Positions 4,009 to 50,493 of a stretch of 64,000 nucleotides of DNA are shown here, piece after piece. How positions within the stretch are numbered: position 1 is the first letter of the stretch; every line of letters begins with the position of its first letter. Where the stretch lies: positions 41,349 through 105,348 of the forward strand of contig CAYZNT010000009.1 of assembly GCA_964479735.1 (NCBI GenBank), written 5' to 3'. A program made the position numbers and the translations under genes. The DNA is from an uncultured Clostridia bacterium (GTDB lineage: Bacteria; Acidobacteriota; Aminicenantia; UBA2199). A model generated the notes under the pieces. It worked only from the letters and a program-made list of their open reading frames with translations, was not told the origin of the DNA and made no database searches.

Positions 4009-4082
4009 AGGCGCGTAGCCCAGTTGGTTAGAGCGCTACCTTGACACGGTAGAGGTCGGCGGTTCGAGCCCGCCCGCGCCTA
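4009..4082 (+). tRNA. tRNA-Val (anticodon GAC)
   Basis: Manual cloverleaf. Acceptor is AGGCGCG/CGCGCCT. D-arm is GCCC-AGTTGGTTA-GAGC. Anticodon stem CTACC/GGTAG has loop TTGACAC. T-arm is GGCGG-TTCGAGC-CCGCC. Discriminator is A. CCA is not encoded. Confidence 0.85.
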
Positions 4083-40475: not shown

Positions 40476-42512
40476 TTACCGCTTGGTCTTTTTCAGCGCC
40501 TCGGCGGCGGCCTCGAGCAGGGGCTTGACGGAGATCTCGCTGCCGGTGGCGATCTTCATCCAGGCGTCGGGGGTGAGGCGGCCAACCGCGCACATGCGCT
40601 CCATTTCCGCCCCCAGGCTGCGCCCTGCCAGGTGGCGGCCGATCTGGAACTCGATGAGCTGGCCCAGGGGGTAATCGGACAGGTAGAGGGGATAGTGGAT
40701 CATGTGCGAGTATACGGCCAGGATCACCTGGTCGCGCACCCCGAACACGTCGGCGTAGTACTTGTTCCAGACGTCGCGGGCGATGGAGATGACCGCCCGG
40801 CGCAGGTCCTCGGGGCGGGCGGCGGGGTTCTGGTACAACCACTCCCAGACGCGCATGTCCACCAGGGACACGCCCATGATCTCGTAGCACGACCAGAGGG
40901 CGTCCAGCGCCTGCAGGAAGTGGGACTGGGAGTCCTCGCGATTCAGCCCGAGCACCTCCAGGTCGCGCCCCTGGAAGATGAAGGCGAACGCCTCGCTGAA
41001 GGCGGAGTTGGGCACACCGGCCAGCATGGGGTGGTCCGCGCGGTGCATCGACAGCACCTGCTCCACGCAATGGCCCAGCTCGTGCAGGGCGATGTTGAAC
41101 CCCTTGTAGTTCAGGCCGGCGGCCGGCACACGGGTTCGCAGGTGCGCCTTCTCGGAGCGCATGGCCGGTCCCCAGGCGTGGCCGATGCCGCGGGCGGCGT
41201 CCACCTCGATCCGCGCCGCGATGAAGTCGGCCGGCCGGGCGCCGAACCCGAGGGTGACCAGGATGTCGCGGAGGTCCTGCTCGAACGCCTGGGCGTCCGG
41301 GTAGCGGCGGGCCACCAGCCGGTCCAGCTCCGCCTCCTGGGGGGCGGAGCCGCGGAAGCCGTTGTACCAGATGTCGAAGGGGCGAAGCTTGCGGCCCAGG
41401 CGCTTCTCCACCAGGAGCGCCACCTGGCGCACCTCGGGGGCCGAGAGCAGCTGGGTGAACATTTCGCTCACCTGCTCCCTGGGGATCTCGCGCCCGCTCT
41501 CGAACGAACGCTGGATGTAGGTCGGCATGGCGGGGTGGCAGGCGTCGAGCTCGCGCGCGGCATGAAAGATGTCGAGCAGGTGCAAGTAGCGCGAATTGGG
41601 CTCGGGGGTCCAGGCGACCTCCTTGCCGTCCCGCCACAGGCGGTTGCTGAAGGGGTTCCACTCGCAGGCCGGCGAGTTGATCACCGGGCGCGGGATGTCC
41701 TGCTGGACGATGCGCTTGAACACCTCGTAGATCGTCTCCTGGCGGGCCAGGCCGGCGCGATCCGCGTAGCGCGCCCGGATCTCGTCGCGCAGGCCCCAGT
41801 GGCTGATCAGCTTCAGGTCGGGCGGGAAGAGCCGCTGGCCGTCGCGGCCGAGCAGCCTCCCCAGGTAGATGTCGTACTCGGAGATGTAGGTCTGGGCCCG
41901 GGTCCGGGCTCCGGCCATCTGTTGTCGGACCCGGGCCGGCACGCGCGCGGTGAAGTGGTCCCCCAGCCGCGCCATGGCCCAGTCCAGGCGGTTCCAGCGG
42001 GCCGCCGCCTCGCCCTTTTCGCTCAGCGTGTAGTGGGGAAAGTTGAGCATGACCAGGAAGGCGATGCGGTTGGCGAACAGGTCGTCGGTGAGGTGGGCCC
42101 CGGGATCGTACTGGCCGAACAGCTCGTCGATGGTTCCGATCTCCCCGGCGTCCTCGTCCAGCGGCCGTTTCAGGTCCAGGCTGATCCGGTTGAAGTGGCC
42201 GGCCAGGGTCTCGAAGTGCGCCTCCAGGCGGGCGAAGGCGGCGTTCAGGGCCGGGCCGGCGGGGAGGAAGTTCTCCTTGCAGAATTTCTGGAACTCCCCG
42301 GCGCTGCCGTCGCTTTCCAGCCAGAGCGCCGCCACCTGGCCCACGCCCTTGTCGATCCGCTCCTTCTGGCCCTCGCCGAATTTCCCGGCCAGGAACTGGC
42401 GCACCAGGGTCTGGGTCTGCTCGTCGATGAAGGAATCGTCTGCGCCAAGGGGCTCCGCCGCAGCCAGCAGCAGGGAGAAGGCGACGCAGAGGATGGGGAT
42501 CGATCGGTTCAC
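40476..42512 (-). CDS. Secreted putative zinc metallopeptidase (HEXXH motif), family unassigned
   Basis: Signal peptide MNRSIPILCVAFSLLLAAAEPLGA, then FNIALHELGHCVEQ (HEXXH) with a downstream Glu, 678 aa. Confidence 0.55.
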   Translation of the reverse strand: MNRSIPILCVAFSLLLAAAEPLGADDSFIDEQTQTLVRQFLAGKFGEGQKERIDKGVGQVAALWLESDGSAGEFQKFCKENFLPAGPALNAAFARLEAHFETLAGHFNRISLDLKRPLDEDAGEIGTIDELFGQYDPGAHLTDDLFANRIAFLVMLNFPHYTLSEKGEAAARWNRLDWAMARLGDHFTARVPARVRQQMAGARTRAQTYISEYDIYLGRLLGRDGQRLFPPDLKLISHWGLRDEIRARYADRAGLARQETIYEVFKRIVQQDIPRPVINSPACEWNPFSNRLWRDGKEVAWTPEPNSRYLHLLDIFHAARELDACHPAMPTYIQRSFESGREIPREQVSEMFTQLLSAPEVRQVALLVEKRLGRKLRPFDIWYNGFRGSAPQEAELDRLVARRYPDAQAFEQDLRDILVTLGFGARPADFIAARIEVDAARGIGHAWGPAMRSEKAHLRTRVPAAGLNYKGFNIALHELGHCVEQVLSMHRADHPMLAGVPNSAFSEAFAFIFQGRDLEVLGLNREDSQSHFLQALDALWSCYEIMGVSLVDMRVWEWLYQNPAARPEDLRRAVISIARDVWNKYYADVFGVRDQVILAVYSHMIHYPLYLSDYPLGQLIEFQIGRHLAGRSLGAEMERMCAVGRLTPDAWMKIATGSEISVKPLLEAAAEALKKTKR

Positions 42513-42576
42513 GGGCTGTCTCCTGGCGCTACTCTACCATGACCGGCCTGGGCAGGCAAGGGCGGGCGGGAAACGT

Positions 42577-42605
42577 TTGCTTGCAATCCGGCTCTTTGTT
42601 AAAAT
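42577..42605 (+). promoter_or_regulatory. Sigma70-like promoter (TTGCTT, 17 bp spacer, TAAAAT) for the corrinoid-protein operon
   Basis: TTGCTT at 42577-42582 and TAAAAT at 42600-42605. The 5' UTR of about 40 nt has no room for a cobalamin riboswitch. Confidence 0.5.
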
Positions 42606-42648
42606 CGTCCCGGAAAATTTGCAGGCCGGGAAAACCGGCAGGAGGGCG

Positions 42649-43296
42649 ATGGACAAGTCCGAAGCGATTGCCCGGATCGAGGCTTTTCTGCTCTCCCTGG
42701 ACTCGCTTGCGCTCCGCGGGCTGGTCTCCGGGCTGCTGGCCACCCTGTCCGCTCAGGACATCGCGGCGCACCTGCTCCAGCCGGCCCTGGAGCGGATCGG
42801 CGAGAAGTGGCAGCGCGGGGAGCTGGCCCTGTCGCAGGTCTACATGAGCGGCAAACTGTCCGAACAGTTGCTTGACTCGTTCCTGCCCGCCGCTGACCCG
42901 CAGCGGAAATCGGAGCCGAAGATGGCGATCGCCGTCCTCGAGGACTACCACTTTTTAGGCAAGCGCATCGTTCATGCACACCTGCGCGCGTCGGGCTTCG
43001 AGCTGTTGGATTACGGGCGCCGTGAGGCTGGGGATCTGGCCGAAAAGGCGGGGCACGACCGTCTGCAGGTGCTGCTGATCTCTACCCTGATGTACCCGTC
43101 GGCTCTCCGCGTTCGTGAGGTACGCGCCCGCCTCGATCGCCTGGCGCCCCAGGTGCGCATCCTGGTCGGAGGGGCGCCGTTCAACCTGGACGAAACCCTG
43201 TGGCGGTCGGTGGGAGCCGATGCCATGGGCCGGGACGCCGCCGCGGCGGCCCGCCTGGTCGTCCAGCTGGGCGTGAAGGCCCCGGGGGCGGCATGA
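42649..43296 (+). CDS. Cobalamin-binding protein (B12-binding_2 helical cap plus B12-binding Rossmann domain; MtbC/MtaC-like or CarH-sensor-like)
   Basis: DYHFLG (the DxHxxG lower-axial-ligand motif), a downstream S-x-L and GG motifs (LLISTLM...ILVGGAPF), 215 aa. Confidence 0.75.
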   Translation: MDKSEAIARIEAFLLSLDSLALRGLVSGLLATLSAQDIAAHLLQPALERIGEKWQRGELALSQVYMSGKLSEQLLDSFLPAADPQRKSEPKMAIAVLEDYHFLGKRIVHAHLRASGFELLDYGRREAGDLAEKAGHDRLQVLLISTLMYPSALRVREVRARLDRLAPQVRILVGGAPFNLDETLWRSVGADAMGRDAAAAARLVVQLGVKAPGAA

Positions 43297-44321
43297 CCTC
43301 GCTGGAGCGCGTATTGACCGCGCTGGGACATCGTGAACCCGACCGGGTGCCTCTTTTCCTGTTGCTGACCATGCACGGTGCGAAGGAGCTGGGGCTTTCC
43401 ATCCGGGAATACTATTCCCGGGGGGAGAACGTGGCCGAAGGGCAGGTGCGCCTGCGCCGCAAGTATGGGCATGACTGCCTCTATCCCTTTTTCTACGCTC
43501 CTCTGGAAATCGAGGCCTGGGGCGGAGAGGTGATCTTCCGAGACGACGGCCCGCCCAACTCCGGGGAGCCGTTCATCTCGTCGCCACGGCAGATCAGCCA
43601 TCTGGAGCCGCCGCGGGTCAGAGATGCAAAGTGCCTGTCCAAGGTGTTGCAGGGCATACGCCTGCTGAAGGAACGAGTGGGGGACCAAGCCCCCATCATC
43701 GGCGTGGTCATGTCGCCCTTCTCCCTGCCGGTCATGCAGATGGGGTTCGAAGGCTATCTCGATCTGATGATGACCCGCCCCCGGCTCCTGCACCGGCTGC
43801 TGCGGCTGAACGAGGCCTTTGCCGTGGAGTGGGCCAACGCGCAATTGGCGGCGGGGGCGACGGCCATCTGCTATTTCGACCCGCTCTCCTCACCCTCCAT
43901 GGTCCCCCGCGACCTCTTCCTGAAAACCGGCTACCGCGTCGCCCGGCGCACGCTGCCCGCGATCCGGGGGGCGATCGCCGTTCACCTGGCCTCCGGGCGC
44001 AGCCTGCCGATCATCGACGACGTCATCCGGGCCGGGGCGGCGGTGGTCGGTACCAGCAGCGTGGAGGACCTGGCCGAGGTGAAGGCGGCCTGCGCGGGGA
44101 GAATGACCGTGCTGGGCAACCTCAACGGCATCGAGATGTGCCGTTGGTGCCCGGCGGAGGCGGAGGAGGCCGTGCGCAACGCCATCGCCAAGGCGGCCGC
44201 GGGAGGAGGCTTCATCCTCTCGGACAACCACGGCGAGATACCCTTTCAGGTGGGCGACGACGTGCTTGCGGCCATCGCCGAGGCGACGCGGCGACACGGC
44301 ACCTACCCCATCGGGGAATGA
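43293..44321 (+). CDS. URO-D-like methyltransferase (MtaA/CmuA family; methylcobamide methyltransferase II-like)
   Basis: 342 aa URO-D fold (...YPFFYAPLEIEAWGGEV...VMSPFSLPVMQMGFEGY...). ATGA overlap with the corrinoid protein gene. Confidence 0.7.
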   Translation: MTSLERVLTALGHREPDRVPLFLLLTMHGAKELGLSIREYYSRGENVAEGQVRLRRKYGHDCLYPFFYAPLEIEAWGGEVIFRDDGPPNSGEPFISSPRQISHLEPPRVRDAKCLSKVLQGIRLLKERVGDQAPIIGVVMSPFSLPVMQMGFEGYLDLMMTRPRLLHRLLRLNEAFAVEWANAQLAAGATAICYFDPLSSPSMVPRDLFLKTGYRVARRTLPAIRGAIAVHLASGRSLPIIDDVIRAGAAVVGTSSVEDLAEVKAACAGRMTVLGNLNGIEMCRWCPAEAEEAVRNAIAKAAAGGGFILSDNHGEIPFQVGDDVLAAIAEATRRHGTYPIGE

Positions 44322-44328
44322 TCTCGGC

Positions 44329-45636
44329 ATGGATCGGCCGGTTCGGCTGCTGATTTGCGGGAATTTCCGCGGCGAAGCGCTGGCCGCCCTCTCCGCGGGC
44401 GACTGGCACGGGGTGCGGGTGGACTTCTTTCCGGCAGCGTGCGGGAAGCGCGCCCTGTCCGAGAGGGACCTGGCCGCCTGCGCGGGCGGGATCGACGACG
44501 GCGAGGAGGGTTTGATCGTGGGCTCCGCTTGCCTGGCCCAGGTCGGGCACCTGGACGGCCCGCTCTCCCGGTTCGGGCTCCTGCGGCAGGAGCTTTGCTT
44601 CCACATGGTCGCCGGCAGGGACCTGGTCCACTCCTATACCGCTTCGGGCGCTTACCTGGTCACTCCGGGCTGGCTGGCCGACTGGCGGGAGAACGTCGCC
44701 CGTTGGGGAGACCCGGAGGCGGTCCGGGCCATGTTCGCGGAATCGGTCAGCCGCCTCCTCCTGCTGGATACCGGAGTCGATCCGCGCAGCCGCGCGCACC
44801 TGGCCGACATGTCCGCCTGGATCGGCCGGCCTGCGGAGGCCCTCCCCGTCGGGATCGATTTCTTCCGGATGTTCCTGCAGAACGAAATCGGCAGGCTGCG
44901 CTTGAAAAGACGGGGAGCTCCTCCCATCGACGTCCCGGAGCCGGAGCCGGCACGGGCGGCCGACTACGCCATGGCCCTGGAACTGCTGGGCGACATTCCG
45001 CGCACGGAGCGGGAGGAAGCCGTGATCACCCGCATCGCCGACTTGTTCAAGATGCTCTTTTCGACCGGCTATTTCCGCATATTGACGATCGTCGAAGGTC
45101 GGCCGGGTCCGCTTTGGTCATCTCCGCCGCTGCCCGATGCGGCGGAGGTGCGGCAGGAGCTGGAGGCGTTTGATCTGCCGTTCGAGATGCTCGAAGACCG
45201 CCAGGGATTCCGTCTCCGGGTCGGCTCTTCCGAAGGCACTCTGGCCGTGATCGAGGCGGGCGGCATCTCTTTCCCTGAGCACCTGCCGCGCTACTTGAAC
45301 CTGGCCCTGGGGCTGGTCAAGCTGATCGTCCTGGCCCTGCAGAACGCCCGCGTCTTCGAGCAGCGCGAGAAGCTGCTGGCCGAGCTGCAGGGCGCCCTCG
45401 GCAACGTGAAGCGCCTCAGCGGCCTGCTGCCCATCTGCGCCAACTGCAAGAAGATCCGCGATGACCAGGGCTACTGGCAGCAGGTGGAGACGTACATCGC
45501 CGAGCATTCGCAGGCCGACTTCACCCACGGCATCTGCCCCGACTGCATGGACATTCTCTACCCGGGTGCGAGCAAACGCATCAGGCGCTCCAAGAAGGGG
45601 GGGGGAGAGGGGTTGCCGGGAGACGATACCGAATAG
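44329..45636 (+). CDS. Sensor-like protein paralog A: N-terminal Cys-rich domain (possibly DUF1638-like), central coiled-coil/PAS-like region, and a C-terminal conserved Cys4 motif domain
   Basis: 435 aa. The C-terminus is LSGLLPICANCKKIRDDQGYWQQVETYIAEHSQADFTHGICPDCMDILYPG. There is no HisKA/HATPase, GGDEF, EAL, HTH or REC domain. Confidence 0.65.
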   Translation: MDRPVRLLICGNFRGEALAALSAGDWHGVRVDFFPAACGKRALSERDLAACAGGIDDGEEGLIVGSACLAQVGHLDGPLSRFGLLRQELCFHMVAGRDLVHSYTASGAYLVTPGWLADWRENVARWGDPEAVRAMFAESVSRLLLLDTGVDPRSRAHLADMSAWIGRPAEALPVGIDFFRMFLQNEIGRLRLKRRGAPPIDVPEPEPARAADYAMALELLGDIPRTEREEAVITRIADLFKMLFSTGYFRILTIVEGRPGPLWSSPPLPDAAEVRQELEAFDLPFEMLEDRQGFRLRVGSSEGTLAVIEAGGISFPEHLPRYLNLALGLVKLIVLALQNARVFEQREKLLAELQGALGNVKRLSGLLPICANCKKIRDDQGYWQQVETYIAEHSQADFTHGICPDCMDILYPGASKRIRRSKKGGGEGLPGDDTE

Positions 45637-45705
45637 GCGGTCCACGCCCCGGCGCCGGGGCGGCAGGGCAACCCCCATACGATTCCCCCGCCTCTGTGTT
45701 ACAAT

Positions 45706-46803
45706 ATGGTCCGAATGGCCACGAGAGATTTTTCCCGGCTCATCTCGGACAACGAACGCTGGCTCATGCGCCGGGTGCTGGAGTACGCCCGCGCCCACGG
45801 CTATACCCGCTACACGTCGACCCTCGAGGAGGCCTGGCGCGTCTCCATCGCCGGCTTGAACGAGCGCCTTCTGGCTGCGTGGGAGAGCGACCCGCGACCG
45901 CGGGAGCTCGGCCCGGACGAGGACTACACCCGCGACCCGGCCGCCGCCTTCGGCATCCTCGAGGCGCAGCGACACCGCTCGCGCGGCATCACCCTGCCGA
46001 TGTTCCTGGGATTGATGAAGTACTACCGTCAGGCCTACGTCGACCTGGTCGAAGAGATGGGCGAGCCGCTCCGGCGGGCCGAATGGCGCCGGTTCGTCGA
46101 CCGCTTCTTCGACCGCGTTGAACTGGGGTTCATCTCGGAGTGGGGCGCCTGCCGGGACGGCGACCGGCTGGCCGAGCTGCAGGCGCAGAACCGCTCCATG
46201 ACCAACGAGAAGAACAAGTACCTGACCATCTTCGAGAGCCTCTCCAAGCCGGTCTTCCTGCTGAACGAAGCCCACCTGGTCGAAAACGCCAACCACGCGG
46301 CCGTCTCGCTCTTCCTGCCCGGCAGCTCCCCCGGGGCCGTCTACTACCGCGAGCGTCCGCTGCAGGAGTCCCTGCCCTGGCTCTTCCCCGAGTTCGCCGC
46401 CTTCGCCTCCGGTGACCATGTGGAGCTTTCGTTCGAAAAGCGCCTGGAATGCCGCGAGGGAGGCCGCGATTTCCAGGTCCGCCTGCGGCGCATGCTCGAC
46501 GTCTCGGGGAAGTTCACCGGCACCACCGTGATCCTCACCGACATCACCGAGCTGCACCAGGCCTGGGAGCAGGTGAACCAGCTCACCGGACTGCTGCCCA
46601 TCTGCGCCAACTGCAAGAAGATCCGCGACGACCAGGGCTACTGGCAGCAGGTGGAAACCTACATCGCCGACCGTTCCCAGGCCGATTTCACCCACGGCAT
46701 CTGCCCCGAGTGCATGGAGACCCTCTACCCGGGGGCAAGCGAGCAGATCAAGCGCCGGAAGAGGAACGCCAGCCAGACGACTCCACGGCGGGATGGCGAC
46801 TAG
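45706..46803 (+). CDS. Sensor-like protein paralog B: helical N-terminal domain, PAS-like domain, same C-terminal Cys4 motif domain
   Basis: 365 aa. The C-terminus is LTGLLPICANCKKIRDDQGYWQQVETYIADRSQADFTHGICPECMETLYPG. The 3' about 150 bp of DNA is about 90% identical to that of paralog A. Confidence 0.65.
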   Translation: MVRMATRDFSRLISDNERWLMRRVLEYARAHGYTRYTSTLEEAWRVSIAGLNERLLAAWESDPRPRELGPDEDYTRDPAAAFGILEAQRHRSRGITLPMFLGLMKYYRQAYVDLVEEMGEPLRRAEWRRFVDRFFDRVELGFISEWGACRDGDRLAELQAQNRSMTNEKNKYLTIFESLSKPVFLLNEAHLVENANHAAVSLFLPGSSPGAVYYRERPLQESLPWLFPEFAAFASGDHVELSFEKRLECREGGRDFQVRLRRMLDVSGKFTGTTVILTDITELHQAWEQVNQLTGLLPICANCKKIRDDQGYWQQVETYIADRSQADFTHGICPECMETLYPGASEQIKRRKRNASQTTPRRDGD

Positions 46804-47944
46804 GCGGGTTTCCCTCCGGCAGGAGCCGGTGGCCTGGGTTCCCCCCCTGCTCTCCTGGTTCGCCGCCAACCGGCGCGACCTCCCCTGGCGCCGGCGGCGC
46901 ACTCCCTACCGGGTCTGGGTGTCGGAGGTGATGCTGCAGCAGACCCGGGTGGAGACGGCCGTTCCGTATTACCTCCGCTTCCTCCGCCGACTCCCGACCC
47001 TGGCCTCGCTGGCCGCCGCCGACCTGCAGGCGGTGCTGAAACTGTGGGAGGGGCTCGGCTACTACCAGCGGGCGCGCAACCTGCACCAGGCCGCGCGCCG
47101 GGTGATGGCGGAACACGGCGGGCGCATCCCCGCGGACGCCGCGCGCTTCGGCTCCCTGCCCGGGGCCGGGGAGTACCTGACCGCGGCGGTGCTGAGCATC
47201 GCCGCCGGTCTGCCGCTGGCCGCGGTGGACGGCAACGTGCTGCGCGTCTGGGCGCGCCGGGCCGGCCTGCGCGCCGACATCGGCTCCGCGGCGACCCGGC
47301 GCCGGGTGCGCGATGCGCTGCAGGAGATCATCCCGCGCGACCGCCCGGGAGACTTCAACGAGGCGATGATGGAGCTGGGCGCCCTGGTGTGCACCCCGCG
47401 CCGCCCCTCCTGCCCCGAATGCCCGCTGGCTTCCTCCTGCAGGGCCAGGTCCCTCGGTTTGACGGAAAAGATCCCGGTGCGGAAGAAGGCCCGTTTCGTC
47501 CCCACCCATCGCGTGGCCGTGGCCGCCCTGGTGCGAGGCGACCGCTTCTTCGTCCAGCAGCGGCCCGAGGGCGGCCACCTGGGGGGGCTCTGGGAGTTCC
47601 CCGGGGGCAAGGCGAAGCCGGGGGAAGACCTCGAGGAGGCCCTGCGCCGCGAGCTTCGCGAGGAGCTGAACATCGGGACCGACATCCTGGCCGAGCTGGA
47701 TACGGTGCGCCACGCCTACAGCCACTTCGCGGTCGTGCTCACCCTCTTCGCCTGCCGCCCGCGCGGCCGCATCCGCTGCGCCGCCCCGCACCGCTGGATC
47801 ACCCCGGGAGATATTCCCGGCCTGCCCTTCCCGAAGGCCAACCACCGCCTCTTCCCGGCGCTGACCGGCTGGCTGGAAGGGTATTGGCCGCGCGGGCAGG
47901 AGCAGAGAAGATCCGCGCGGCTGGCAAAAGGCGGGGGTTTGTGA
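46793..47944 (+). CDS. mutY: A/G-specific adenine DNA glycosylase
   Basis: HhH-GPD region, the 4Fe-4S cluster motif CTPRRPSCPECPLASSC, and a C-terminal NUDIX-like domain (FPGGKAKPGEDLEEALRRELREEL). Confidence 0.9.
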   Translation: MATRRVSLRQEPVAWVPPLLSWFAANRRDLPWRRRRTPYRVWVSEVMLQQTRVETAVPYYLRFLRRLPTLASLAAADLQAVLKLWEGLGYYQRARNLHQAARRVMAEHGGRIPADAARFGSLPGAGEYLTAAVLSIAAGLPLAAVDGNVLRVWARRAGLRADIGSAATRRRVRDALQEIIPRDRPGDFNEAMMELGALVCTPRRPSCPECPLASSCRARSLGLTEKIPVRKKARFVPTHRVAVAALVRGDRFFVQQRPEGGHLGGLWEFPGGKAKPGEDLEEALRRELREELNIGTDILAELDTVRHAYSHFAVVLTLFACRPRGRIRCAAPHRWITPGDIPGLPFPKANHRLFPALTGWLEGYWPRGQEQRRSARLAKGGGL

Positions 47945-47984
47945 TACCCATATGGTCGGACCCGAAGCACTCCGGGAGGAGAAC

Positions 47985-49316
47985 ATGACAACCTGGAATC
48001 ACCGCCGATGGATCGGAGCCGGCTGCATCGCGCTTCTGGCCGCATTATCGCCCGCGGCCCTGCCCGCCGCCGGCGAGGACCTGGCCGCGAGGCTGCGGCC
48101 CTACGTCAAGAAGGTGCTCTTTTTCGAGAGCGGCTGGGAGACGCCGGCCTACGGCAAGCGGGACTACCGCACCCACTTCATCGAGTCGCTCACCCGCTAC
48201 CTGAACTGGGAGATCGACCTCGAGATGCCCGCCCCGGGGAAGCGCATCGACTACGAGATCGAGGTGGTGTGGCGGCGGGCGGACGGCTCGATCGAGGCGA
48301 CCCAGAAGAAAAAGACCTTCATCGAGGCCGACTGGACCACCCCCTGGACCTCCTGGGGCTACGGCCGGCGCAGCCCCGGGGCATGGAAGCCGGGCGCCTA
48401 TACCGTCGAGTTCCGGGTCGGCGGCCAGATGCTGGCCAGCGGTTCGTTCACGGTGCTGAGCCAGGCTGAGGCCGGCGTGGCGCCGGCCACCATGCTGGCC
48501 GGCTCCGTGCCGGTATGCCCCGGGGCGCGCCTGCTGTCGCTGGAGGATCTGGCTCCCGGCTCCACCATGGGCCACGCCGAGCTGGAAGTCCCCGGGGACA
48601 AGACCTTCGCCTTCGGCTGGTACCGCGACCAGCTGCAGGCGCTGGGCTGGAAGCTGGACACCGCCCTCGCCGCCGACAAGGAGGAGGGAGCGCTGAAGGA
48701 CAAGGCCAAGGTGTGGGGGTTGCTCAACCTGACCCGCGAGGGCCGCAGCGTCACCGTGCTGGTGCCGGCCGACGGCCAGTCCAACCCGCCGCACACGAGG
48801 CTCGACATCACCCTGCTCGACCCGCTGGCCGGCGCCTCGGTGGCCGACCTCGTCGCCCGGCTGCCCCGGCTGCACGCCGCCGACCACAAGATGAACCAGC
48901 GCCTGCAGGCGGGGGAATGGGCCTTGACCGTGCTCTCGGCGAAGATCGAGGGCCGCACCATCACCAAGAAGTGGCCGACCGGCGCCTCCTACACCTTCTC
49001 CGCCGTCACGCCCAAGACCTACCTGCTGCGGGTGATCGTCGAGCTGGAGCGGCTCAACGGCAAGCCGATCAAAAAGGACTTCCTGGTGGCGGCCGGGGTG
49101 CGCGACCCGGCGGGAAACCTGTATCCCTGCGTGGGCGCGGGCACCGATCTGGGCGAATACTACAACTACACCCAGGGCGGCAACCAGTCGCTGCTGATGC
49201 CGGTCACCGCCAAGGACAAGCTCGAATACGTCTTCGCCCTGCCGCTCGAAGCGGCCGCCGCGGAGTTCATCTGGCCCGGGTTCGAACCGGTGCCGATCGA
49301 CGTGACCGGAAACTAG
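47985..49316 (+). CDS. Secreted hypothetical protein
   Basis: Signal peptide MTTWNHRRWIGAGCIALLAALSPAALPAAG, about 443 aa. I recognise no family. Confidence 0.5.
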   Translation: MTTWNHRRWIGAGCIALLAALSPAALPAAGEDLAARLRPYVKKVLFFESGWETPAYGKRDYRTHFIESLTRYLNWEIDLEMPAPGKRIDYEIEVVWRRADGSIEATQKKKTFIEADWTTPWTSWGYGRRSPGAWKPGAYTVEFRVGGQMLASGSFTVLSQAEAGVAPATMLAGSVPVCPGARLLSLEDLAPGSTMGHAELEVPGDKTFAFGWYRDQLQALGWKLDTALAADKEEGALKDKAKVWGLLNLTREGRSVTVLVPADGQSNPPHTRLDITLLDPLAGASVADLVARLPRLHAADHKMNQRLQAGEWALTVLSAKIEGRTITKKWPTGASYTFSAVTPKTYLLRVIVELERLNGKPIKKDFLVAAGVRDPAGNLYPCVGAGTDLGEYYNYTQGGNQSLLMPVTAKDKLEYVFALPLEAAAAEFIWPGFEPVPIDVTGN

Positions 49317-49473: not shown

Positions 49474-50493
49474 ATGAAAAAGACGATTCTCTTCGTGCTG
49501 GTCGCAGCGGCCCTGATGGCGGTATTCGCCTCTCCGCTGAAGGCCGGTGTCTCGGCCTACGCGTTCGGCGACTACTACTTCGTGCTGAAGCAGCACAACC
49601 CGGCGCTGGAGGACCTCAACGGCTTCTGGCTGCGCCGCATCTACATCACCTACGACGCCGACATCTCCGACAAGCTGAAGGCGCGCGCCCGGCTCGAGAT
49701 GCACAGCGACGCCAAGTTCGGCTCCTCGCAGCTGTCCATCACCCCGTTCGTCAAGGACGCCTACATCGCCTACCAGTTCGCGCCGCTGCACAAGCTGCAG
49801 CTCGGCATCCAGGAGTCCCTCACCTGGGCCAACGTCGAGAAGTTCTACGGCTACCGCCACCTCGAGAAGACGGCCTTCGACCTCTACAAGGTGCGCTCCT
49901 CCCGCGACTTCGGCGTCTCCCTGGGCGGGTCGCTGGACAAGGCCAAGACGTTCAACTACACGGTGCTGTTCGGCAACTACTCTTCCTATCGCCAGGAGAC
50001 GGACAAGTACAAGCAGGTGGCCTTCCGCTTCACCGTCAACCCGAGCGCCCAACTGATGCTCGAGGCCTCGGCGGATTTCGCCACCGTGTCGGCGGTCAAG
50101 AAAACCTCGCTGTTCCAGGGCTTCGCCGGCTACCAGGGCGACTGGGGCCGCATCGGCCTCAACTACGGCCAGGAAAAGGTGCAGGAAGACGGCAAGGCCG
50201 ATGTCGATTTCGGCGTCTTCTCCACCTTCGCCGTGGTCAAGCTCAACAAGAAATTCGAGGCCGTGGCCCGCTACGACCTGACCACCAAGCCGCAGCCCTA
50301 CGGCCAGTCCGACTTCATCGTCATCGAGAAGGGGTACAAGACCAACCTGTTCATCCTCGGCCTGGGCTGGAACGTGCACCCCAAGTTCCAGATCATGCCC
50401 AACCTGAAAATGGTCACCTACCAGGCCAACGACCTCGGCCTCAAGCCCGACGGCGACACCTACTTCAACGTGACCTTCTACTATCAGTTCTGA
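49474..50493 (+). CDS. Outer-membrane phosphate-selective porin (OprO/OprP-like)
   Basis: Signal peptide, beta-barrel-like sequence, C-terminal ...YYQF. It lies immediately upstream of pstS. AAGGAG RBS is present. Confidence 0.7.
   Translation: MKKTILFVLVAAALMAVFASPLKAGVSAYAFGDYYFVLKQHNPALEDLNGFWLRRIYITYDADISDKLKARARLEMHSDAKFGSSQLSITPFVKDAYIAYQFAPLHKLQLGIQESLTWANVEKFYGYRHLEKTAFDLYKVRSSRDFGVSLGGSLDKAKTFNYTVLFGNYSSYRQETDKYKQVAFRFTVNPSAQLMLEASADFATVSAVKKTSLFQGFAGYQGDWGRIGLNYGQEKVQEDGKADVDFGVFSTFAVVKLNKKFEAVARYDLTTKPQPYGQSDFIVIEKGYKTNLFILGLGWNVHPKFQIMPNLKMVTYQANDLGLKPDGDTYFNVTFYYQF

Follow-up and report, generated by a model that had tools for sequence, protein, structure and literature searches.

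Two adjacent genes of an uncultured Clostridia bacterium (GTDB lineage Bacteria; Acidobacteriota; Aminicenantia; UBA2199) encode proteins that end in almost the same short module, which is built around four cysteines. They lie on a 64,000-nucleotide (nt) stretch of contig CAYZNT010000009.1 (assembly GCA_964479735.1, positions 41,349 to 105,348 of the forward strand), and this whole stretch is referred to as the window. Gene A (44329-45636, forward strand) encodes a protein of 435 amino acids (aa) and gene B (45706-46803, forward strand) a protein of 365 aa. The module that they share, called the tail in the following, is a new, very large and uncurated domain family of bacterial sensors, and the most economical reading of its sequence and its surroundings is that of an effector (output) domain. 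From gene A we infer a conserved corrinoid-linked sensor cassette. A mechanism for it, and a kind of target for the tail, are proposed below. Our reading is that A and B are cytoplasmic signalling proteins with a Cys4 output tail, that A reads out the corrinoid cassette, and that B is an independent sensor; we put the probability of this reading at roughly 55%. Both the tail and the cassette fall within modular bacterial signal transduction.

The Tail Module of Proteins A and B

A preliminary description of the window had reported two open reading frames (ORFs) of 435 and 365 aa at this site, both of which are present, and had called their products paralogues. The tail alone is common to them. 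A BLASTP alignment of A with B is confined to the C-terminal parts (E 1e-38) and the remainder of the two proteins is unrelated. The near-identity of the last 50 or so residues, which had also been noticed, holds up well: between GLLPIC and LYPGAS, 46 of 51 residues are the same in both tails. The motif proper is C-x2-C-x26-H-x2-C-x2-C and is 37 aa long. The order of its elements (C-x2-C, then His, then C-P-x-C) had been read correctly from the outset, but the spacing to the His is 26 residues and not about 29.

In protein A the tail comprises aa 363-413 (45415..45567, forward strand), rather than the residues 385-435 at which it had first been placed, and contains Cys370, Cys373, Cys403 and Cys406 together with His400. 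In protein B it comprises aa 293-343 (46582..46734, forward strand) with Cys300, Cys303, Cys333 and Cys336 and with His330. In A the motif proper spans nt 45436-45546 and aa 370-406, in B nt 46603-46713 and aa 300-336. A search of all six frames of the window for the motif found no third copy besides these two. Pfam and NCBIfam detect no kinase, GGDEF, EAL, helix-turn-helix (HTH) or REC domain in either protein, which bears out the initial remark that neither has a recognisable effector. At the DNA level the tail-coding segments (45421-45573 and 46588-46740) are about 91% identical over about 153 nt, with sharp edges on both sides. The same codon is used at 32 of the 40 positions where a synonymous choice exists, and local codon usage would lead to an expectation of 24.8 +/- 2.8. 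This pattern suggests a recent common origin or duplication of the tail alone, or a gene conversion.

A Large and Uncurated Domain Family

The tail has no curated family. When the full proteins were scanned at E<=1, no model of Pfam-A (2025 copy) or of NCBIfam release 20 reached its threshold over the tail, as the preliminary description had anticipated. A phmmer search of all PDB sequences gave no meaningful match, and the tail has no sequence or fold relative among the solved structures of the PDB. No published description was found by sequence fragment or by keyword, in a literature coverage that is incomplete and may have missed one. Isolated tails, 55 in number, were also scanned against Pfam at E<=10. 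DUF3039 appears weakly in 51 of these 55 tails (best score 18.2 bits, cut-off 22.7) and zf-C4pol weakly in 29 of them (15.1 bits, cut-off 28.9). Membership in DUF3039 or in a zinc-ribbon family was rejected because these scores are below threshold and the DUF3039 match covers the first knuckle alone; the matches are a generic zinc-knuckle similarity.

A hidden Markov model (HMM) built from the 55 tails served for an exhaustive search of cluster representatives at 50% identity, 1.84 billion in number. At E<=1e-3 at least 24,596 of them carry the tail, and at E<=1e-10 the number is 20,360. A survey with one genome per GTDB species yielded at least 600 matches, and 80 loci among the matches listed. 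Recurrence in PAS and GAF proteins of Desulfobacterota had been suspected; the association with PAS and GAF is real and the range is far wider, with at least 12 phyla among the matches listed. These include Desulfobacterota, Chloroflexota, Acidobacteriota, Nitrospirota, Bacteroidota/Ignavibacteria, Spirochaetota, Verrucomicrobiota, Myxococcota, Marinimicrobia, Fidelibacterota, Latescibacterota, Armatimonadota, and others. Tails from other phyla are 60-79% identical to that of A, and of 327 homologues that bear the motif, 326 have it at a length of exactly 37 aa. Tail genes often occur as tandem paralogues (P0360-P0363 and P0365-P0369, for example), and locus L012 has three of them within 12 kb. 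Database proteins that seem to carry two tails were rejected as a true double-tail architecture, since they are adjacent tandem paralogous genes read as one.

Conservation was measured on 187 domain copies from the 147 top independent cluster representatives, with no pre-filter on the motif. Numbered from the first cysteine, Cys1, Cys4, Cys34, Cys37 and Trp14 are invariant (187/187), and K5, R8 and D10 are conserved in at least 94% of the copies. The likeness of the tails thus goes well beyond coincidence. His31 is present in 154 of 187 only. The cysteines of the original motif are thus fully conserved among homologues, as had been expected of them, while its His is not. A ligand role for the His, be it as a fifth ligand or an alternative one, was rejected along with a ZAS-like motif, since 18% of the copies have another residue in its place and no copy lacks any of the four Cys. 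The site is accordingly a Cys4 site, of which the His is probably not a ligand. With two C-x2-C knuckles, one of which is C-P-x-C, the tail is probably a Cys4 metal site, and zinc is the most likely metal.

Several small metal-binding modules resemble the tail. Zinc ribbons and treble-clef C4 fingers (zf-C4pol, DZR_2, DUF3039) likewise have two C-x2-C knuckles about 30 residues apart. The ZAS motif, H-x3-C-x2-C, shares with the tail a His followed by a C-x2-C that closes a small zinc-binding regulatory module. The tail, however, reads H-x2-C-x2-C, has its His in only 154 of 187 copies and is half the size of ZAS; no sigma-factor gene is linked to it at about 70 loci, and there is no match to Pfam zf-HC2. 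The archaeal HalOD2 and TackOD1 are small CXXC domains that follow REC and are possible zinc fingers (PMC5847659). Their range is confined to halobacteria, or to Thaumarchaeota with their relatives (Galperin et al. 2018), whereas the tail family is bacterial and far larger. Motif counts and spacing differ as well, and the tail is set apart from both by description, with no claim of homology.

The Tail Occupies the Output Position

In 327 motif-bearing proteins the tail ends a median of 14 aa short of the C-terminus. Domain architecture was recorded for 75 tail proteins of 70 genomes, taken from the listed genome loci. The partners of the tail in this sample are PAS (33 proteins), REC (11), GAF (6), MASE3 (4), HisKA_7TM (4), Reg_prop/Y_Y_Y (3), Cache/HAMP (3), Tll0287-like (3), and TPR. 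None of the 75 proteins contains a known output in the form of a kinase, cyclase, phosphodiesterase or HTH. The lists of homologues obtained with A and with B as queries concur and add periplasmic binding-protein domains and the dCache-HAMP-PAS arrangement to the partners.

The tail also changes places with known outputs. DUF1638-GAF, the sensory part of A, is followed in different proteins by the tail, by HisKA-HATPase_c (P0130, P0137, P0138, and others) or by GGDEF (P0145, P0149, and others), and the junction to each of these outputs is the same YLNLAL..A..NAR helix. In the family of B, the N-terminal domain and PAS are followed by the tail, by GGDEF (P0295, P0299, P0321), by HisKA_3/HATPase (P0304, P0329) or by HisKA (P0314). 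The first Cys of the tail follows the PAS 'DIT' motif at a distance of 18 aa in 55 non-redundant sequences and of 32 aa in another 228. This step of 14 aa is two heptads, as expected of a continuous coiled-coil signalling helix.

Some tails stand by themselves. Genes of 83-98 aa that encode only a helix and the tail are found on contigs of 133-472 kb at L087 (5001-5276), L088 (5001-5297) and L089 (5001-5252); their neighbours are unrelated and no sensor gene lies directly upstream. They may be forms of the module that act constitutively or by titration. Rarely, a winged-helix-like extension of about 70 aa continues the chain beyond the tail, namely in the REC-tail protein P0175 (aa 205-276) and in the dCache-HAMP-PAS-tail protein P0240 (aa 629-705). 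The extension scores 21.8 bits against HTH_IclR (cut-off 22) and matches HTH_24 more weakly. This extension hints at a pathway with transcription as its end point, in which a separate domain would supply DNA binding whenever that is required.

Taken together, the C-terminal position, the input-only partners, the swapping, the linker register, and the autonomy of the module make 'effector domain' the most economical reading, and the preliminary suggestion that the tail sits as an output element gains from its exchange with histidine kinase and GGDEF domains. Like the HisKA-HATPase_c and GGDEF outputs, the tail takes the same position on a fixed-register helix after PAS, GAF, REC and HAMP, and it is interchangeable with them in the families of A and B. 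Unlike them, it is only about 45 aa long, has a Cys4 site and no nucleotide-binding or catalytic fold, and bears no relation to them in sequence or fold.

Protein A and the Corrinoid Cassette

Protein A begins with a DUF1638 domain (aa 1-195; 44329..44913, forward strand), which is predicted by AlphaFold2 as an alpha/beta fold with a predicted local distance difference test (pLDDT) score above 90. The preliminary description had taken this region as possibly DUF1638-like, and PF07796 indeed matches aa 80-182 with 33.8 bits against a gathering cut-off of 27; homologues of A carry PF07796 as well. The motifs TPGWLxxWR and LLDTGV are conserved in the family alignment. DUF1638 is followed by a GAF domain (about aa 207-315; 44947..45273, forward strand), recognised by sequence HMM or structural match, and by a long signalling helix (about aa 316-362; 45274..45414, forward strand) that joins GAF to the tail. 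AlphaFold2 predicts aa 316-364 as one single helix. Sensor-type DUF1638 domains have an invariant Cys10 and Cys38, and keep each of Cys68 and Cys90 in at least 90% of cases. These four could form a metal or Fe-S site, and the papers found on DUF1638 make no mention of this set of cysteines.

Gene A is the third gene of a cassette. The first encodes a corrinoid (B12-binding) protein of 215 aa (42649..43296, forward strand; Pfam B12-binding_2, E 9e-11, and B12-binding, E 2e-13) and the second a URO-D-family protein of 342 aa (43293..44321, forward strand; Pfam URO-D, 175 bits). Seven cassette loci were compared, that is, every DUF1638-GAF-output gene with a readable context. The order B12-binding_2/B12-binding, URO-D, DUF1638-GAF-output, all on the same strand, is found in 7/7, and the other neighbours are unrelated. 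Four types of output occur among the seven. The tail is the output in the window (protein A), in L001 (P0127), and in L002/L003 (P0129), where the genome is rich in Por_Secre_tail genes. PAS plus tail is found in L091 (P0128), a histidine kinase in L004/L005 (P0130) and in L090 (P0138), and GAF-GGDEF in L006 (P0149), from Candidatus Viridilinea mediisalina.

The corrinoid protein is of the methyltransferase type, with cap and Rossmann Pfam domains and the corresponding motifs. D-x-H-x-x-G, S-x-L and G-G are kept in 5/5 cassette orthologues, which are 44-52% identical, and the scores against the equivalog models MtbC, MtgC and MtaC are all far below their cut-offs. The first cassette gene shares its B12-binding_2 plus B12-binding architecture with CarH (NF052513, 30.8 bits against a cut-off of 400) but lacks the MerR DNA-binding domain of CarH and has no HTH. 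Its cap reads LSQVYMS, as in the corrinoid proteins of methyltransferases, where the CarH cap has E-H.

The second gene had been described as an MtaA-like methylcobamide methyltransferase, a name that the comparison does not sustain. It scores 93.8 bits against TIGR01463 (MtaA/CmuA; cut-off 235.4) and 75 against NF040654 (cut-off 400), and the URO-D superfamily model is the only one whose cut-off it reaches. In an alignment with MtaA (4ay7), H-I-C is replaced by H-L-A and G-C-G by N-H-G. Five cassette orthologues that are 56-68% identical all have H-(L/F)-A and (N/G)-H-G, and both Cys ligands of the zinc with which MtaA activates its thiol acceptor are gone. Since the ligands are missing and the score is below the cut-off, 'methylcobamide methyltransferase' is not established, and by their sequences the cassette proteins are a distinct URO-D subfamily. 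The cassette resembles the MtaB/MtaC/MtaA systems and the O-demethylases MT1/CP/MT2 in that a corrinoid protein with cap, Rossmann domain and DxHxxG lies beside a URO-D-family protein. It differs from them in a URO-D protein without the H-x-C...C zinc site, in a third gene that encodes a signalling protein, and in the lack of a second methyltransferase or activase close by, with neither a pterin-binding methyltransferase nor a RamA/DUF4445 activase near the cassettes at any of the 7 loci.

Genetic evidence already links DUF1638 to corrinoid-dependent methyl transfer. In Phaeobacter inhibens the split methionine synthase, which depends on B12, cannot do without it, in a study that left its function unproposed, and it co-occurs with a RamA-like activase (10.1101/192971). 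It is also among the proteins predicted to recharge cobalamin reductively (PMC12478193). We infer that A serves as the subunit for read-out in a conserved module of three genes. The URO-D protein would load or alter the corrinoid on the B12 protein when prompted by a small-molecule methyl donor, or by some other condition that shifts the state of the cobalt. The DUF1638 domain of A would then sense the state of the corrinoid and relay it, by way of GAF and the helix, to the tail, or to the other outputs in related cassettes. Possible inputs are an environmental methyl donor, the redox state of cobalt, or the light-driven loss of the Co-C bond.

Protein B Is an Independent Sensor

Protein B has a different sensory part. 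An alignment of 39 homologues delimits a strongly conserved helical N-terminal domain (about aa 1-160; 45706..46185, forward strand) with an invariant His90 in the motif EAQRHRxRGxxLxMFLGLMKYYRQ. The domain has no match in Pfam or NCBIfam, and none in the PDB by profile, and it may be an unrecognised cofactor-binding sensor domain. A sensor globin was guessed from HRxRG...YY, and the profile search of the PDB gave no support to it. The domain is followed by a PAS-like domain (about aa 165-285; 46198..46560, forward strand) with sub-threshold matches to PAS_4 (17.2 bits against 23.1), PAS (16.4 against 22.6) and PAS_8. A profile of the B family matches the PAS domain of ThkA (3a0r) with an E of 0.009, and many homologues of B carry precomputed PAS matches.

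The preliminary description had coupled both A and B to the corrinoid and URO-D genes. For A this coupling is found at 7/7 loci. None of the six other cassettes has a B-type gene, and genes of the B family elsewhere (L092, L093) have unrelated neighbours; B was rejected as a part of the corrinoid system on both grounds. The system hence consists of three genes and not four, and B is an independent sensor, made of a helical domain, a PAS-like domain and the tail, that happens to adjoin the cassette.

How the Tail May Work, and Alternative Explanations

In an output role the tail would act through the coil on which it sits. An upstream sensor would alter the geometry or the register of a dimeric coiled coil, and the changed coil would alter the pairing or the exposure of the two tails. 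In consequence the tails would take hold of, or let go of, a target encoded at another site of the genome, and a conserved protein would be a likelier target than nucleic acid.

Several points weigh against this reading of A and B. When the four genes that flank each tail gene on each side were clustered, 544 ORFs in all and drawn from about 70 genome loci, no dedicated partner gene emerged. The recurrent neighbours are generic OmpR-type regulators, PAS kinases and REC genes, each in no more than 7 loci, and the neighbours of the stand-alone tails (L087-L089) have nothing in common. Metal binding by the tail is read from the sequence alone. Two AlphaFold2 runs differ in its secondary structure, the first giving strand-helix-helix-strand-helix (pLDDT 86) and the second a beta-hairpin plus helices (pLDDT 50-78), so that either fold is tentative. 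A nearly neutral or acidic tail of about 45 aa gives no clue to its activity. How the cassette would sense is wholly inferred, DUF1638 has no known biochemistry, and the cassette could be metabolic, with its missing partners encoded elsewhere.

The explanation that survives best beside our own, and that we regard as unlikely, is that the tail is a small zinc ribbon that binds DNA or RNA and that the tail proteins are one-component regulators of transcription or translation acting on nucleic acid. The Cys4 two-knuckle layout, K5 and R8 in CKKIR, and the weak matches to zinc-ribbon and C4 finger families fit such a function. The missing partner gene is what a DNA target would lead one to expect, and the two proteins with the winged-helix-like extension tie the module to transcription; that same extension, however, suggests that DNA binding is supplied separately. 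The 45-aa tail core is slightly acidic (mean net charge -0.85; -4 in A and -3 in B), which argues mildly against plain nucleic-acid binding, and there is no similarity to known DNA-binding zinc domains in sequence or in predicted fold. Tails as alike as these, 60-79% identical across phyla and with many paralogues per genome, would moreover imply one shared target sequence, which is ill-suited to many sensors.

It is decidedly improbable, in our view, that the B12 protein, the URO-D protein and DUF1638 form a metabolic methyltransferase system without any sensing, in which DUF1638 is a corrinoid maintenance or reactivation factor and GAF and the tail merely regulate or localise it. The requirement for DUF1638 in the split methionine synthase of P. 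inhibens, its co-occurrence with a RamA-like protein, and its naming as part of reductive cobalamin recharging all speak for such a system, and URO-D-family and corrinoid proteins are standard parts of one. In orthologous cassettes, however, the same DUF1638-GAF bears histidine-kinase or diguanylate-cyclase outputs, which is signalling. A second methyltransferase or activase is present in 0/7 loci, and the URO-D protein lacks the two Cys zinc ligands of MtaA.

A marginally poorer prospect still is that the tail serves as an additional input or purely as a structural cap (a redox switch based on thiols or metal, or a rubredoxin-like Fe site) on proteins that act through another feature, for while four invariant Cys with a C-P-x-C knuckle and a family rich in anaerobic and sediment lineages accord with it, it leaves REC-tail, transmembrane-tail and helix-tail proteins without an effector, the tail stands in, at one shared junction, for a histidine kinase or GGDEF, the linker has a quantised register like that of sensor-to-effector helices, and none of the 55 tails matches Pfam rubredoxin even at E<=10.

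Significance

Tens of thousands of sensor proteins that carry the tail, among them PAS, GAF, REC, Cache and membrane sensors, now look as if they had no output. The phyla that bear it, at least a dozen among the matches listed, dominate sediments, soils and anaerobic habitats. Once the target of the tail is defined, the signalling route of all tail sensors would be defined together, and the tail might reveal a mode of bacterial output without phosphorylation or nucleotide messengers. As a small autonomous module on a fixed-register helix, it is also a possible engineering part. The cassette gives the orphan DUF1638 a concrete proposed role, the reading of the state of a corrinoid protein. If this role is true, the cassette is a class of corrinoid-based sensors with plug-in outputs (tail, kinase, or diguanylate cyclase). 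A bolder joint proposal, which we advance tentatively and consider rather doubtful, is that the tail is a major unnamed output class acting on a conserved hub, such as the transcription machinery, rather than by phosphorylation or second messengers, and the cassette a new corrinoid-state sensor.

Layout of the Locus

Five closely set ORFs occupy 42649-47944 on the forward strand. The corrinoid protein gene has AGGAGG 6 nt upstream of its ATG, and its stop overlaps the start of the URO-D gene (ATGA). Gene A begins 7 nt past the stop of the URO-D gene, and these three genes are thus overlapping or nearly abutting. The spacer between A and B measures 69 nt (45637..45705) and contains a GC palindrome, CCCCGGCGCCGGGG, that was read from the sequence. 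A TACAAT hexamer lies 2 nt ahead of the first ATG of B. It might mark a separate, possibly leaderless start of B at 45715, from which B would be 362 aa long; the ATG at 45715 is the start in the public protein P0158.

The stop codon of B overlaps the ATG of a mutY-like gene (ATGGCGACTAG; 46793..47944, forward strand; Pfam HhH-GPD and NUDIX_4), which is a neighbour and is not claimed as a part of the system. A single transcriptional unit at 42649-46803 had been proposed. Its first three genes are tightly packed, but because of the overlap with mutY any transcription unit would extend past 46803. B may be co-transcribed with the cassette. A consensus scan of 42300-48200 on the forward strand found no canonical terminator and no sigma-70 promoter, a result that neither proves nor disproves co-transcription. 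No cobalamin riboswitch or other RNA was found near the operon, and the sole Rfam match in the window is a tRNA gene (4009-4082, forward strand).

The flanking ORFs, of 678 aa (40476-42512, reverse strand), 454 aa (47952-49316, forward strand) and 339 aa (49474-50493, forward strand), have no Pfam match at E<=0.001. The last of them precedes a phosphate-binding-protein-like sequence, which was read only within the translation tail of an overlapping ORF.

DNA-repair genes adjoin three of the seven corrinoid cassettes. They are mutY in the window, uvrB (L004, 4289-6274) directly after a kinase-type cassette, and uvrA (L002, 1-12) about 6 kb upstream of another. Their presence may be a coincidence, or a hint of an input related to light or damage.

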